A stretch of DNA of 64,000 nt, from assembly GCA_951406725.2 (NCBI GenBank), contig OX597818.1, positions 132,122,001-132,186,000 of the forward strand, written 5' to 3'. How positions within the stretch are numbered: position 1 is the first letter of the stretch; each line of letters opens with the position of its first letter. Positions 2,968 through 34,695 of the stretch are shown here, in pieces. Position numbers and translations under genes: made by a program. The notes under the pieces were generated by a model that saw only the letters and a program-made list of their open reading frames with translations, was not told where the DNA came from and did not search any database. Source of the DNA: Octopus vulgaris. Its lineage: Eukaryota.

Positions 2968-3290
2968 TTCATCATCATCATCATCATCATCGTTTAGCGT
3001 CCGTTTTCCATGCTAGCATGGGTTGGACGGGTCAACTGGGGTCTGTGAAGCTGGAAGGCTTCGTCAGGCCCAGTCAGATCTGGCAGTGTTTCTACGGCTG
3101 GATGCCCTTCCTAACGCCAACCACTCCGCGTGTGTAGTGGGTGTTTTTTACGTGCCACCTGCACAGGTGCCAGACAGAGCTGGCGAACGGCCACGAACGG
3201 ATGGTGCTTTTACGTGTCACCGGCACGGGGCCAGGCGATGCTGGCAACGGACACGAACGGATGGTGCTTTTACGTGCCACCGACATGGGG
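2968..3290 (-). mobile_element. SINE-like element, family E, with RTE-type 3' tail (catgctagcatgg...gacgctaaacgatgatg)
   Basis: Close similarity to 9312-9452 and 17162-17320; (CAT)n tail; internal direct repeat acgaacggatggtgcttttacgtg. Confidence 0.85.
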
Positions 3291-3720
3291 CATCATTAAC
3301 TGATTGTCACCATCATATAACTCTCTTTGTTTTTGCTTTTGTAGCATCAATGGATGTAGTTGGTGTGTAACACAGCATTCTACCACTTGTATTATTTTAT
3401 TGTCATTTTCTATTTAGATTCCAATGTCCCCAGATCTGAGCTAACCACATGCTTTCTTAGATTCATAGATTATATGACCATCAGAGATTTAGTAAAAATA
3501 ATAATATATACAATATATGTGTGTGTGTGCATTCCAGCTGCTAATAAGATTGAATATTACTTTAGAGTTTCTCCAACAACCAGTTCATTCATTGTGTGGA
3601 TTAAACTGTATTTTATGAAATAACTGGATGTTAAGAAGAATCCAGAATAAAAATCAATTGTATCAGTAGAAATAGATACACATGAGTGTGTACGTTTATC
3701 TTTATGTGTATAAATGTATG

Positions 3721-3767
3721 TATGTACATATATATACACACACACTCATCATCATCGTTTAGCGTCC

Positions 3768-3802
<35 letters not shown>

Positions 3803-3827
3803 GGGTGTGTGTATATATATGTACATA
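3721..3827. repeat. Inverted duplication centred on a micro-fragment of the family E 3' tail
   Basis: tatgtacatatatatacacacacactcatcatcatcg | tttagcgtc | cgatgat...gagggtgtgtgtatatatatgtacata. Confidence 0.8.
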
Positions 3828-3894
3828 TATACACTATATATATTTATATATATATATATACATATACATTGCATACACATTCACACACACACAC

Positions 3895-6828: not shown

Positions 6829-8451
6829 TTACTGTTTAGCTTCAAGCTATTTCTGACTGAGTAGATGCATGGTCAAAAGCTTTCTGACCTTGATCAGCTT
6901 GTTTGAATTTCAAGAATAGTGTATCCAGAACTACAATATCCAATCTGTCCTTCTTGTTTTTTTTTTTTTGGGGGGGGGTTGTATTTTAAGATGATAGTGT
7001 TCGAGCTAAGAGAGATTTGGCTAGTATTTCTAGGAAGTTAAATGGCCAGGTAAAGTCTCTCTGGATGTTTTTTAAAAAAATTTTTTATGAAGTGTCTATG
7101 TAGAGGGTACAACAAATAGTTAAAAGATTTGACACTAAAGAGTATAGTTAATTTGACTGACTTGACTTTGGTATATGACTGGCACTTACATAACTGAAAT
7201 TCTTCTATGCATACAAAGGCAAGGTTGGCTCTGCAAAAGTAGGGGACATAATTTGATACCTATTTCTTTACTGGCCACAAGGGGCTACACACAGAGGGGA
7301 CAAAATTTGATACCACTGAACATTTTACCATTTCAAATTACAATGTTTTCTGTAGGCCCTTCTTGTATGCTTCCTTCCCCCAGATTGAGACGTGGTTCAT
7401 TGGCTTGTAGTTCTGAGCTCATTTCTTCCAGCAAAGAAAGATTGTTTTTCACCAGTATAATGCTACAAAAGTTGTGGATCTTTTGCAATATGGAAAAAGA
7501 AAGATTTAGGATTTAGCACTCTAATGATTGTGATAGAAATCTTTTCTGAATACTTTCATCATGTTGCCTTTAGTCAGATTAATTTCATTAAAAATTTGTC
7601 AACAACCTTAAACTGGTTGTTTTCAACCTTCTTACTCGTAGCATATGTAAAAATATTTTGATACACATTGTGTGTAAACTAAAATGTATTGAGAAATTAT
7701 AGCCTACTTTTTTATTATTTTTAACTGGCAAAAAACTTACAGGGGCTGAGAGTTTCATGCTTGACACTTCTCAAATTAGCTTCAGCTCTGAAAGCTTGTT
7801 TTTTATATAGTGTGAATTGCATTTCTTTCTGGAATGTTTGATTAAAAGTTAACATGTATGTGGGTTTATTGATGGTCACACGAAAATTGCTTAGGTTTTA
7901 AAATAATTTTCCCATTAAACAGAAAGTAATCTTGAGAGGAGCTTATAAATATAATAATTAAAAGTATAGAAATTATCAAGTGCTATCTTCTATATTCAAT
8001 AGATGAAGCATAATTATCAAGAATTTAAATTTAGAATTTTGGATATTTTTTACATATTATTTAAAAATATACAATACATGTAATGGACGTTAAATGATGA
8101 AGGTGATGATGATGATGATGATAGTGTTTATGTGTACCTGAGTGATGATGATGATGTGAGTGCATATATGTACATGCATGTGTGTGAATGCCATAGTACA
8201 CTGTTTGCCTTAGAACATTGCTTATACTACTATTTCAATTTTTAGCTTGTCATATTGATGTGGCATTATAAAATATAACACTGCACCCAGATTAGTATCA
8301 GAAAATAGTATTATAAATTTAATTGAATATTTAAACATCTTTTATGAACAGACGTTATTAATAAAACATTGTAATAATATATCTTAAGCCTCTTCTGTGT
8401 GCACAAGTGTGTGTACATACATATATAAGTATATATGTATAACTACATAAT

Positions 8452-8505
<54 letters not shown>

Positions 8506-8711
8506 TTATGTAAAATAAACAAAAATGAGCTAAGTGGAATAATCAAGAGTAGCCAATGGTACACGTATTTGAACAACATAGACAAATAATTGTAGTGCAC
8601 CTGAGCACTGTACACAATTATTATTATTATTATTTTTATTATAATGCAGTTATTAGACTCTGTTTTGTTTACACTGTGGCTAATCTTGTTCAATATATTC
8701 TGAAATACATC

Positions 8712-9085
8712 TACCAGTCATCAGGCTGTGGCCATGTTGGAGCACTGCCTTGAAGAATTTAAGTCAAACAAATCAAACTCTAGAACTTATTTTTTTTAAA
8801 GTCTAATACTTATTCTATTAGTGACTTTTGCCAAACTGCTAAGTTATGGGGAAGTAAATACACCAACACCAATTGTCAAACAGTGAGGAGGTACAAACAC
8901 AGACACAAATACACACACACACACACACACACACACAGATATGATGGGCTTCTTTCGGTTTCTCTCTATCAAACCCATTCACAAACCTTTGGAAGGCACT
9001 TACCCAAGGTGCCATGGAGGAGGACTGAACCTGGAACCATGTGGTTGGGAAGCAAACTTCCTACCACACAATCATGCCTGCAGGT
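8712..9085 (-). mobile_element. SINE family A
   Basis: Reverse complement of 603-1025 body including (CA)n and the head ttgggaagcaaacttcctaccacaca. Confidence 0.85.
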
Positions 9086-9311
9086 ATATCTATATGTGCA
9101 AACACATTCACACAGTTTTTACATATATCCTTTATTTGTTCATATTTTTTCATTGAAAATGTGTGTTTCATCATGCATATTCAAGTGGGCTTGATGTACA
9201 TATGTTGATACCAATTGTTGTTGACTCCTTAGTTAACCTTGATTAAGCAAGACTTATAATTAAAGGCTTTCCAGTCATGGCTCATTCAAAACTACATTTT
9301 ATCATGTATAT

Positions 9312-9452
9312 AGGTGTTAGGAAGGGCATCCAGCTGTAGAAACACTGCCAGATCAGACTGGGCCTGATGCAGCCTTCTGGCTTCACAGACCCCAGTTGAA
9401 CCGTCCAACCCATGCTAGCATGGAAAACGGACGCTAAATGATGATGATGATG
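9312..9452 (+). mobile_element. Family E 3' fragment
   Basis: aggaagggcatccagctgtagaaacactgccagatcagactgggcc...catgctagcatggaaaacggacgctaaatgatgatg. Confidence 0.85.
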
Positions 9453-11348
9453 ATATCTTATCATTATATATAACACTGAGGTTTGATTTAAGGAAGAATT
9501 GGTTGCTATTTTTAGCAGGTCCATGATATATACATGTGCATGCATGTAATAACTTTACAAACTCATGTGAAAAAAGTTTCTTGTCTCTATGATACCTTGA
9601 GGTATGGGTTTTGTAACTCCAGTAGCTATACACACACTTTTTGGCTATTTTTACATTTCCTAAAATTGGACCTTGAAATTTTATTTTCATTTATCTACTA
9701 TTATAAAACATCTTTTATTAAGCTAGGGCATCTCCATTTTGTTAACCCCTTTTTTCCCCTTGTGTCTGTTTTACATGTGTGTGTGTGTGTGTATGTGTGT
9801 GTGTTCATATTTCTCAGCCTTGCTTAACAAGCTTCGCCTATCTTAAGTTTCCTTTCATCTTTTAAAAATGTACTGGTTTTCCACTGAACCTGCTGTCTAA
9901 AACTTGCCATCTCTTCAATATGCCTTGTTGTAAGCTAAAAATAAATTAATAGGTTGACTATTGGATTTCTCTCTCCCTCTCTCTTTCTTTCTTTCTTTCC
10001 TTCAGTCCCACCTGCACTCCCTCTCTTTTTCTCACTCATTCTTGCTCACCTTATGTCTCTCTCCCTCTATTTCTCTTTTTCTTTCATATGATCCAAGAAC
10101 TTAATTCTTCCGTTTTAATATGCTAGTAGTATTAGGACAGGTGAAATGCTGCATTCTTTCCTTTTTTTTTTAGACATTTATTTTATTTTTTATTTTTTAA
10201 TTTTATTCTCTATGGCAATAAAGATATAGGATTATTTCATAATGCAACAATCCTAGAAATAGTTATTTTTTGGTCTTTGACAGTTTCATTCTCAGAATTT
10301 AGGATTAAGATTTTGATTTCTGAAGACAAGATCAAGCTGATTGAAAACTGTCTTTACTTTATTGTTGAATGTATAACGCACAAACAGATAATCATAAAAT
10401 TCATCAGAGATGTGCCACTTTTCTATATCAAGTCTCCCTATTCTGTTACATTCTTATTGCTTACCTAGATTATTTATAAAAATTGAGTTTGCTATGCTGG
10501 TTTTGGACTATCTTCACCTAAGTCAAGAGTTTGAATTTACTACTTGTAATTTGTTACCTTTATGGGCAGAACACATTATTCTACACTGCTTTAGTTCTCA
10601 TAATCATCAGATACAGGTAGCCACAAACTGACATCTGCTAAATAATTTGGTCTGTTTTGTTACTGAATCCAAAATTCTGTTCAAAACTACAATCTGCAAA
10701 GTATAGCAAGAGAACAACATACCATTTCATACTAAACTCAACACACATACAAAGCAGTCACCAATTTAGGCAACTATTAAACCTGTATACTACTCTTGGG
10801 TGGTACTTAATTAGTCTTTGTTATACTGTAGCCATTTTAATGCTGTGTGTGTGCATGCATATGTGTGCATGTCTGTATGTATCTGTGAATTATAGACATA
10901 TGCATTTGTTTATGAATATGGTTTGTGTATGTATTTTGTGACATTTTACTTTATCTTTTCTGCACATTTGCATTTGGAATGTATATATAAATATGTCCTT
11001 TTTACTGTTTGACTCTACGGATATGCTTATATGTATCTAAGTGCGTGTCTATGTATGAGTGTTTATATTTCTCCTGTTACTCTTCTGTGTACATGTGTGT
11101 ATCAGTGTATGTATTTGTGCATGTGCGTGAGTGTAGAAGACAGCTGTATGTGGATTTGTGGGATTAGGTTGGTGAATGTATATATATATATATATATCTT
11201 TTGTCTGCATGTGTACCTTTGTATACCTGTTTTAAATGTAATTCAAAGCTTGAAATAAAATTAATATTTGTACCAGCTGCATTATTACACTCATGTCATA
11301 TATTGTGTAAGCATTTCATAAAATGTTCATAGTGCACATGGCATAATA

Positions 11349-22788: not shown

Positions 22789-23117
22789 CAGGTTTACAGT
22801 ATCACAGATTTCTACTCCTCTTGTTAATGCAGTAAATTTTTGATCTGTAAAATCGAACAATCTGTAATCCCATTACTATCTCTGATGTTATCTTACAATA
22901 CGTTTTCACTTTGCAACAATCATCTATTTATGTCAGATGTTTGTACAAGTATAGCACTGCTGTGTCCAGTACATGCATCGATTATGGCCCTACTCAGCTC
23001 AAACTCATTTGCCTTTCAAGCGAGCTGGTTTTGCTTGTCTTTCCAAATAAAAAAGTTCCTGGTTTATTCATTTCCATCAAAACTACACAGTTTCTCTGTC
23101 TGTCTGTCTCTCTTTCT

Positions 23118-23153
<36 letters not shown>

Positions 23154-23440
23154 ATCAGCTTGCTTGAAAGGCAAAGTGAGTGTGAGCTGAGAAGGGTCAT
23201 AATCAATGCATATACTGGACACAGCAGTGCCATACTTCTATAAACATCTGACATAAATAGATGATTCTTGCAATATATACATACACGCCCCCAAACATAC
23301 ACATACAGAAACATATTAAACACTGTTTAGGACAAAAGGAGAGGCCCTTATAATAGATGTATACAAAGATGGCTACACAGTAGATAGGAATGAGGGGCAT
23401 GAGTATATATGTGTATGCATGTGTATTTGATTTTATGAGA

Positions 23441-34105: not shown

Positions 34106-34134
<29 letters not shown>

Positions 34135-34156
<22 letters not shown>

Positions 34157-34295
34157 CACACACACACACACACTCGTGTACATATCATCATCATCATCAT
34201 TATCATCGTTTAAAGCGAACGTTAAACAATGATGATGATGATGATGATATGTACAAGAGTGTGTGTGTGTGTATAAATATATATATATATATATA
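34135..34295. repeat. Inverted duplication centred on a micro-fragment of the family E/RTE 3' tail
   Basis: ...cacactcgtgtacatatcatcat..catcgtttaa | agcgaacg | ttaaacaatgat..gatatgtacaagagtgtgtg... Confidence 0.85.
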
Positions 34296-34695
34296 CATTG
34301 AATGTATTCATGGATATGATGTGTGTATATGTATGTATTATGTATGTACCTATTACACATGCTTTTGTGTGTTTCTTACATATATACATATATATTGCAT
34401 ATATCTTACATGTGTGTATGGAGTATGGTATATATATTCATGCATGTGTGTGTGTGTGTGTGTGTGTGTAATGTGCTGGATTTTACAGTTGGAGAAACTG
34501 GTGTGTGTGTGTGTATGTTACATTTGCTGCTATTCTGCACTAAGCATTGATCAAAGACACAAATATACACCAATCTCAGGCTTTGCATCTCTCGCTCTGC
34601 ATGAATGTATCTATATGTTTCTATATTGGTCTACAAGTGTTTATGTGAGTGCACACACGTGCACATGCGTGCGCATACACACACACACATGTGTG

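Follow-up and report, generated by a model that had tools for sequence, protein, structure and literature searches.

Within the window, by which is meant the whole 64,000-nucleotide stretch of Octopus vulgaris DNA that was analysed, a palindrome at 34134-34298 combines a stub of an RTE-like LINE (its 3'-terminal 17 nt), the (GAT)n tail of that element, and a mirror image of the tail and of approximately 50 bp of flanking DNA. A repeat search of the window placed the inverted arms at 34134-34203 and 34229-34298 (70 nt each, 90 % complementary). Folding of the strand yields -61.7 kcal/mol, whereas shuffled sequences average -21.2 (z -14.4) and none of 200 of them did as well. These results bear out the claim of a preliminary description that a (TA)n-(CA)n flank is mirrored about a centre. 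The left side comprises, in order, (AT)22 at 34110-34153, (CA)n, ctcgtgtacatat ending at 34185, (CAT)5-TAT-CAT at 34186-34206 and CGTTTAA at 34207-34213; after the loop, the right side runs as TTAAACA, (ATG)6 at 34229-34246 and atatgtacaagag(TG)n-TATAAA-(TA)n, to approximately 34298. The sole remainder of the element is its 3'-terminal stub at 34212-34228 on the plus strand, which is, one G>A change aside, the last 17 nt of the fuller copies at 2985 (minus strand) and 9432 (plus strand) and also matches the tail downstream of a reverse transcriptase frame elsewhere in the genome (L093, below), so that the centre is indeed an element's 3' tail, as had been proposed. Next to it on the plus strand lie the (ATG)6AT insertion tail, the primed end, at 34229-34248 and, at 34249-34298, what would be the native primed-side flank and template of the mirror, as judged here from the polarity of the class (12 of 12 informative loci) and from the alleles of locus L008. 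The 8-nt hairpin loop, AGCGAACG, occupies 34214-34221 (plus strand) at the centre of the fold, and the AA at 34212-34213 (plus strand), common to the stub and its inverted copy, represents a 2-nt microhomology at the fold. On the minus strand, sequence comparison identifies, at 34186-34213, the terminal 7 nt of the element and its (GAT)n tail in inverted copy, followed at 34134-34185 by about 50 bp of the primed-side flank, likewise inverted; this flank copy is unique in the genome and stops within a (TA)n run. The (AT)22 run, to which no strand is assigned, is likely where the copy joins the other side of the target, the exact junction being blurred by the repeat.

Genome-wide, the focal junction between tail and flank is present solely in the two focal arms, which diverge by a few substitutions, one of them of the CpG type, and by microsatellite lengths; these differences suggest an event of some age and not a chimeric read. 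A second case of the same class lies in the window at 3727-3835 (minus strand), with its fold at CG, a 13-nt stub and approximately 32 bp of mirrored flank. Because the flanks of both cases are mostly repeats, both fall under the flank threshold introduced below, the largely microsatellite focal flank having a repeat-collapsed arm score of 14 against a 99 % null threshold of 17.5. The argument for the focal palindrome is carried by a 13-nt non-repeat core together with the genome-wide class to which, going by its sequence, it likely belongs.

The parent of the stub, which we take to be an RTE-like LINE from its C-terminal motifs and from the RTE LINEs known in octopus, has a short tandem repeat, (GAT)n, at its 3' end, as is the case for LINEs of the RTE clade. 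In L093, a random 10-kb stretch, the same tail lies 234 nt downstream of the end of a 932-codon stop-free frame (6849-9647), to which Pfam assigns RVT_1 (E 9.5e-30) plus a weak PHD match, the PHD-like finger standing immediately past the RT domain. The Pfam search of this ORF did not find an EN domain; the copy is interrupted on its 5' side by another tail and (TA)n. Look-alike clusters of the L093 protein combine RVT_1 with Exo_endo_phos and PHD, as well as DUF6451 in one of them. Recent activity of RTE LINEs with microsatellite 3' ends is reported for octopus in the text of PMC9115989 and PMC13282606. Within the window, the element's 3' UTR (3146-3291) contains 60-bp tandem repeats that vary among copies. 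Additionally, tandem arrays of the short tail unit are found at C2:187488633-187489182, with a 20-nt period, and at C4:141199703-141199919.

The exact tail occurs 41,318 times in the genome. The preliminary description had proposed counting such palindromes genome-wide against controls, and the counts exceed chance: one exact pattern of head-to-head tails at most 25 nt apart is found at 71 loci genome-wide and at 0 in the reversed control, and a wider pattern, with (CAT)3 no more than 30 nt from the tail core, gives 45 distinct loci on C1-C3, which extrapolate to approximately 200 inverted loci genome-wide, versus 24 distinct loci (63 rows, counted by hand) in the same-orientation control. Head-to-head tails also occur at wider spacing, at 15 loci with 26-55 nt and at 28 loci with 56-115 nt between them. 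Given some 200 loci among 41,318 tails, about 0.5 % of well-preserved tails are involved, as a lower bound. With two of its seven tails bearing the structure, the window is atypical, since the structure was seen at none of 25 tails in an unbiased, evenly spaced sample of 600 kb. The set of 78 cases analysed is made up of 48 from the exact pattern with a spacing of up to 25 nt, 28 from the wider pattern and two from the window; it leaves out L029, 16 duplicate loci of the wider pattern, 21 of the 71 exact-pattern places and five wider-pattern loci (end of C3, and C4), and the longer-spacer set leaves out 13 of the 28 loci at 56-115 nt. Among the 78 are 47 different central junctions, on unrelated flanks. 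The two commonest, at 11 loci and at nine (the focal one included), likewise stand on unrelated flanks and therefore represent repeated events, not a mobile palindrome. Fold-back is not the sole fate of ultra-short stubs, since plain ones joined directly to (TA)n exist as well (one variant accounts for 119+50 rows).

Arms were scored by x-drop with collapsed repeats, the null being the 99th percentile of 600 cross-locus pairs. By this measure 38 of the 78 cases have a significant mirrored flank, as do 30 among the 47 with flanks that do not begin in simple repeats; the significant mirrors range in length from 21 to 249 bp (median 74), with nine perfect mirrors of up to 172 bp. Most of the 40 cases under the threshold have (TA)n or short arms. 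Longer-spacer loci are divided between 14 of 30 with a significant mirror and 16 of 30 below threshold, and three of the 78 cases (L031, L049 and L147) have no mirrored flank at all. Runs of (TA)5 or longer stand at the end of the copy arm in eight of the 38 significant loci, versus two of the 38 native arms. Some structures differ in form. L154-L156 are perfectly symmetric folds around the element's own CCATGCTAGCATGG palindrome, without a mirrored flank, and L170 is a nested palindrome, i.e. a tail-centred fold within another. Tail-to-tail pairs, in which a second, opposite tail of the same family lies about 5-250 bp off, often across (TA)n, are seen at L009, L034, L039, L160, C1:1028369-1028460 and C1:1272158-1272278. 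Within the window, a 100-nt inverted repeat of non-repeat sequence (22911-23010 and 23174-23273; 90 % identity) has (TA)14 just inside its right arm and lacks a (GAT)n tail; it may have arisen as a host-side fold-back or represent a MITE.

The length of element before the fold is 12-40 nt, with a median of 17, across the 78 cases. Microhomology at the fold amounts to at least 2 nt in 41 of the 78 (35 in a stricter pass) and to at least 1 nt in 64, as compared with exact-match nulls of 3-14 % and 41-47 %, respectively, the parser being more permissive than those nulls; for class 1 loci, at least 2 nt are shared in 32 of 49, where 3-10 % would be expected. In seven cases, the read-validated L008 among them, the fold has no microhomology, and in seven there are extra bases at the fold. 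The TT:AA junction that had been described for the focal palindrome recurs at nine of the 78 loci, and in a form shorter by one base at 11 more, all on unrelated flanks. The dinucleotide directly after the tail is AT in 53 of the 78 cases and in 18 of 25 random tails, relative to a background of 11 %.

On the matter of which side is original, masked BLAST of 69 loci showed an older flank repeat continuing via the primed side in 12 and via the copy side in none (p 0.0005), the one match to the reverse model (L010) being the same SINE aligned with gaps. The fold-back model expects the native side to be the one that carries the longer piece of element. The duplicated flank is accordingly that of the primed side at all 12 informative loci, and again at L008 when compared with a real empty allele, in agreement with the original proposal that target flank had been copied. 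In-silico removal of the whole unit restored a contiguous older repeat in six of the 69 loci (L010, L024, L036, L045, L046 and L111); the restored sites of L046 and L111 join across (TA)n, and that of L036 matches another copy of the repeat at 91 % over 300 bp. In 45 loci, no 5' remainder of the element adjoins the copy (at four of the loci one lies 77-184 nt off), and, outside (TA)n, no suffix-prefix match of more than 4 nt indicates a direct TSD.

Locus L008, with perfect arms of 172 bp, is represented in four sequencing runs. Runs X19, X1 (organism A) and X2 (organism B) lack both element and mirror, position 1497 being joined to 1736 in each. X1 has, in addition, a contig over the exit junction of the copy (1702-1765) at a depth of 7.2 versus 9.0 for the empty joint, of which approximately 30 letters lie on the arm side, at or barely below the 31-letter rule; with both filled and empty junctions, X1 looks heterozygous. 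At its empty joint X19 carries 27 other letters, so 27 bp of target DNA were lost at L008. X4 breaks at both arm ends, like a filled allele, matches the reference without any difference and may itself be what the assembly was made from. Relative to the reference arm, the empty haplotypes carry five substitutions and one gap, whereas the two arms are identical to each other, and the copy was therefore made in cis, on its own chromosome. Inspection by eye shows four exit bases in agreement with a portion of the segment that was lost, which resembles an alternative end-joining patch. Empty and complete alleles are the only types found at this one locus in the four runs.

As a class, fold-back palindromes of this kind are real and have good support. 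Direct observations are the stub, the mirror image of tail and flank, the recurrence at unrelated sites, the identity of the native side and, for L008, the empty allele without the whole unit and the cis origin. The explanation that we regard as highly probable is that an RTE-like LINE inserted a very short piece, the first strand of which likely folded back, copied its own tail and the primed flank, and likely then joined the far side of the cut. According to this scheme, the element would nick an AT-rich or (TA)n site and prime on its (GAT)n tail, and roughly 12-40 nt of element (median 17) would be synthesized or survive. The free 3' end would then pair by 1-4 bases with its own strand, mostly TT on the AA of TTTAA, and a DNA-templated polymerase would extend it back via the tail into the flank for some 20-270 nt, the template having been bared by 5' resection or strand displacement. 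Once freed, the new strand would be end-joined to the far side; direct duplication would be slight or nil, a small deletion and a patch would at times arise, and second-strand fill-in would fix the palindrome. The preliminary description had reverse transcription aborting after about 20 nt; an abort and a longer cDNA that was trimmed back would leave the same sequence and cannot be told apart. Its further claim, of an inverted rather than a direct target duplication, stands insofar as the flank copy is inverted, but what is inverted is a templated copy of 20-270 bp and not a TSD turned round. Alternative end-joining employs a Pol theta-like polymerase, and a host enzyme of this type is mildly favoured over the element's own RT as the polymerase that would have extended the fold. 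A bolder version, which we consider doubtful, is that fold-back serves as a routine rescue of this LINE's ultra-short cDNAs, the element's own RT turning round and strand-displacing via the tail into host DNA; if that were true, hundreds of inherited scars would constitute an in vivo ruler of the primed end during TPRT's first 20-40 nt, and RTE activity would be a steady source of new locus-specific palindromes.

Besides an insertion that folded back during TPRT, the palindromes might have arisen through repair after insertion, i.e. a break in or beside an inserted element that was resected, folded back and end-joined without reverse transcription. Yeast breaks do yield short fold-back inverted duplications without a retroelement, as described in the text of PMC11724301, L008 did lose 27 bp of target, and the window does have one inverted repeat without a tail (22911-23273). 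However, no 5' remainder of the element lies beside the mirror copy in 45 loci (four of them having one at a distance of 77-184 nt); the near-exact rejoining of flanks in six loci, the restriction of L008 to empty and complete alleles in four runs, and the strict polarity of 12 to 0 also count against later repair, which we judge improbable. Even lower is the probability of twin or dual priming, whereby both cut ends prime RT on the RNA tail and thereby create head-to-head tails, a scenario that the text of PMC2837659 invokes for the 5' poly(T) of 39 primate L1s. It may account for the two-tail cases without a mirror (L031, L049, L147, L154-L156 and L173) and for L177 and L182, which have (TA)n between the arms. 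But its insert would be templated by RNA only, leaving the copied unique host flank of 38 of the 78 cases unexplained; it predicts direct TSDs of 7-20 bp, where 45 loci have no match beyond 4 nt outside (TA)n and L008 has its 27-bp target loss; and the L1 cases are described as lacking internal microhomology, for which the octopus folds are enriched. For loci with a mirrored flank, twin or dual priming is excluded by the copying of unique host flank.

Artefact or chance fares slightly worse again, and we hold it to be very unlikely that fold-back chimeric reads in the library or assembly, or the chance adjacency of complementary microsatellites, produced these structures. Such an origin would accommodate the abundance of TA, CA and GAT repeats in the genome, the largely microsatellite make-up of the focal flank and the perfect arms of nine loci. 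Nonetheless, the focal arms differ by substitutions that include a CpG-type change, the folds always lie 12-40 nt into the end of a single element, the two pattern controls gave 0 and 24, and L008, one of the loci with perfect arms, is filled in X1 with variants of its own and empty in other runs. That the palindrome is a MITE-like element moving as a unit has next to no probability. The same two central junctions do recur, 11 and nine times, as a mobile unit's would; the focal arms, however, are single-copy. A MITE-like element is refuted by the arms past the tail, which are particular to each locus and correspond to the flank there.

Precedents for a first strand that folds back are known from several systems, described here as they appear in the text of the cited sources. 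'Snap-back' 5' junctions are made by the R2 protein in PRINT (PMC11371274, PMC11331408). As there, reverse-complemented cDNA or nearby target is fused at the 5' end of the octopus element, and the cDNA's 3' end primes internally on the same strand, as indicated by the microhomology of at least 1 nt in 64 of 78 cases and by the cis copy at L008. The R2 events concern transgenes engineered into human cells, in many cases following full-length cDNA, whereas those of octopus are natural, inherited, RTE-like and 12-40 nt long; moreover, the octopus copy runs via the tail into the flank, unlike R2 snap-back as described. Nor is this the R2 protein acting at rDNA, the octopus sites being dispersed and the nearest clusters of the parent combining RVT_1 with Exo_endo_phos or PHD. 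By analogy, then, the octopus fold-backs appear to work as R2 snap-back junctions do and to be the same kind of event, though not R2.

L1 offers a second comparison. Foldback inverted duplication at the target is reported for three L1 cases (0.3 %; 52-220 bp) in PMC10191854, and further duplications of this sort appear in bioRxiv 10.1101/2024.12.14.628481 (Fig. 4D,E) and PMC11702581. The octopus class is akin to these in size, small hairpin, microhomology of about 2 bp and rarity (about 0.5 % of octopus tails). In the L1 events as described, it is the upstream (reciprocal) host end that folds, whereas in octopus the cDNA of the primed end folds and tail plus downstream flank are duplicated, so that by this comparison the octopus class presents itself as the mirror counterpart of the L1 upstream foldbacks. 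Templated L1 insertions (22 cases, under 250 bp and within 15 bp of the site; bioRxiv 10.1101/2024.08.27.596794) and the extra 5' nucleotides of ZfL2 that are templated from flanks (PMC4245944, PMC4760211) likewise have local host DNA copied into the 5' junction during insertion; as described, they differ from the octopus structure, in which a single self-primed mirror runs unbroken over stub, tail and flank. In the 5' poly(T) insertions of L1, as in octopus, a truncated element has an inverted tail at its 5' end, but PMC2837659 describes these insertions with TSDs of 7-20 bp and without internal microhomology, and its text reports no mirrored flank. The fold-backs at yeast double-strand breaks (PMC11724301) share the microhomology-primed fold-back, the synthesis and the end-joining capture, but involve no retroelement and are mostly 5-34 bp long, as against the octopus median of 74 bp.

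In the literature covered, mainly freely readable main text, the structure was not found described as a genome-wide class, in RTE elements or in octopus. The fold-back accident is of a known kind, and a primed-side RTE class, in unusual numbers in one genome, is likely new. The palindromes are a by-product, with no evident host function, and a natural record of early TPRT failure; the class also explains short palindromes that might be mistaken in annotation for MITEs or assembly errors. A natural, countable set of this kind, with measurable fold points, copy lengths and polymorphic empty alleles, bears on how stalled TPRT intermediates are resolved and permits direct tests of the timing of far-end release, the extent of primed-end exposure and the polymerase involved. 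Published snap-backs and foldbacks are few, come from cell lines or somatic clones and lie mostly on the unprimed side, whereas the octopus genome holds some hundreds, on the primed side and of natural origin.
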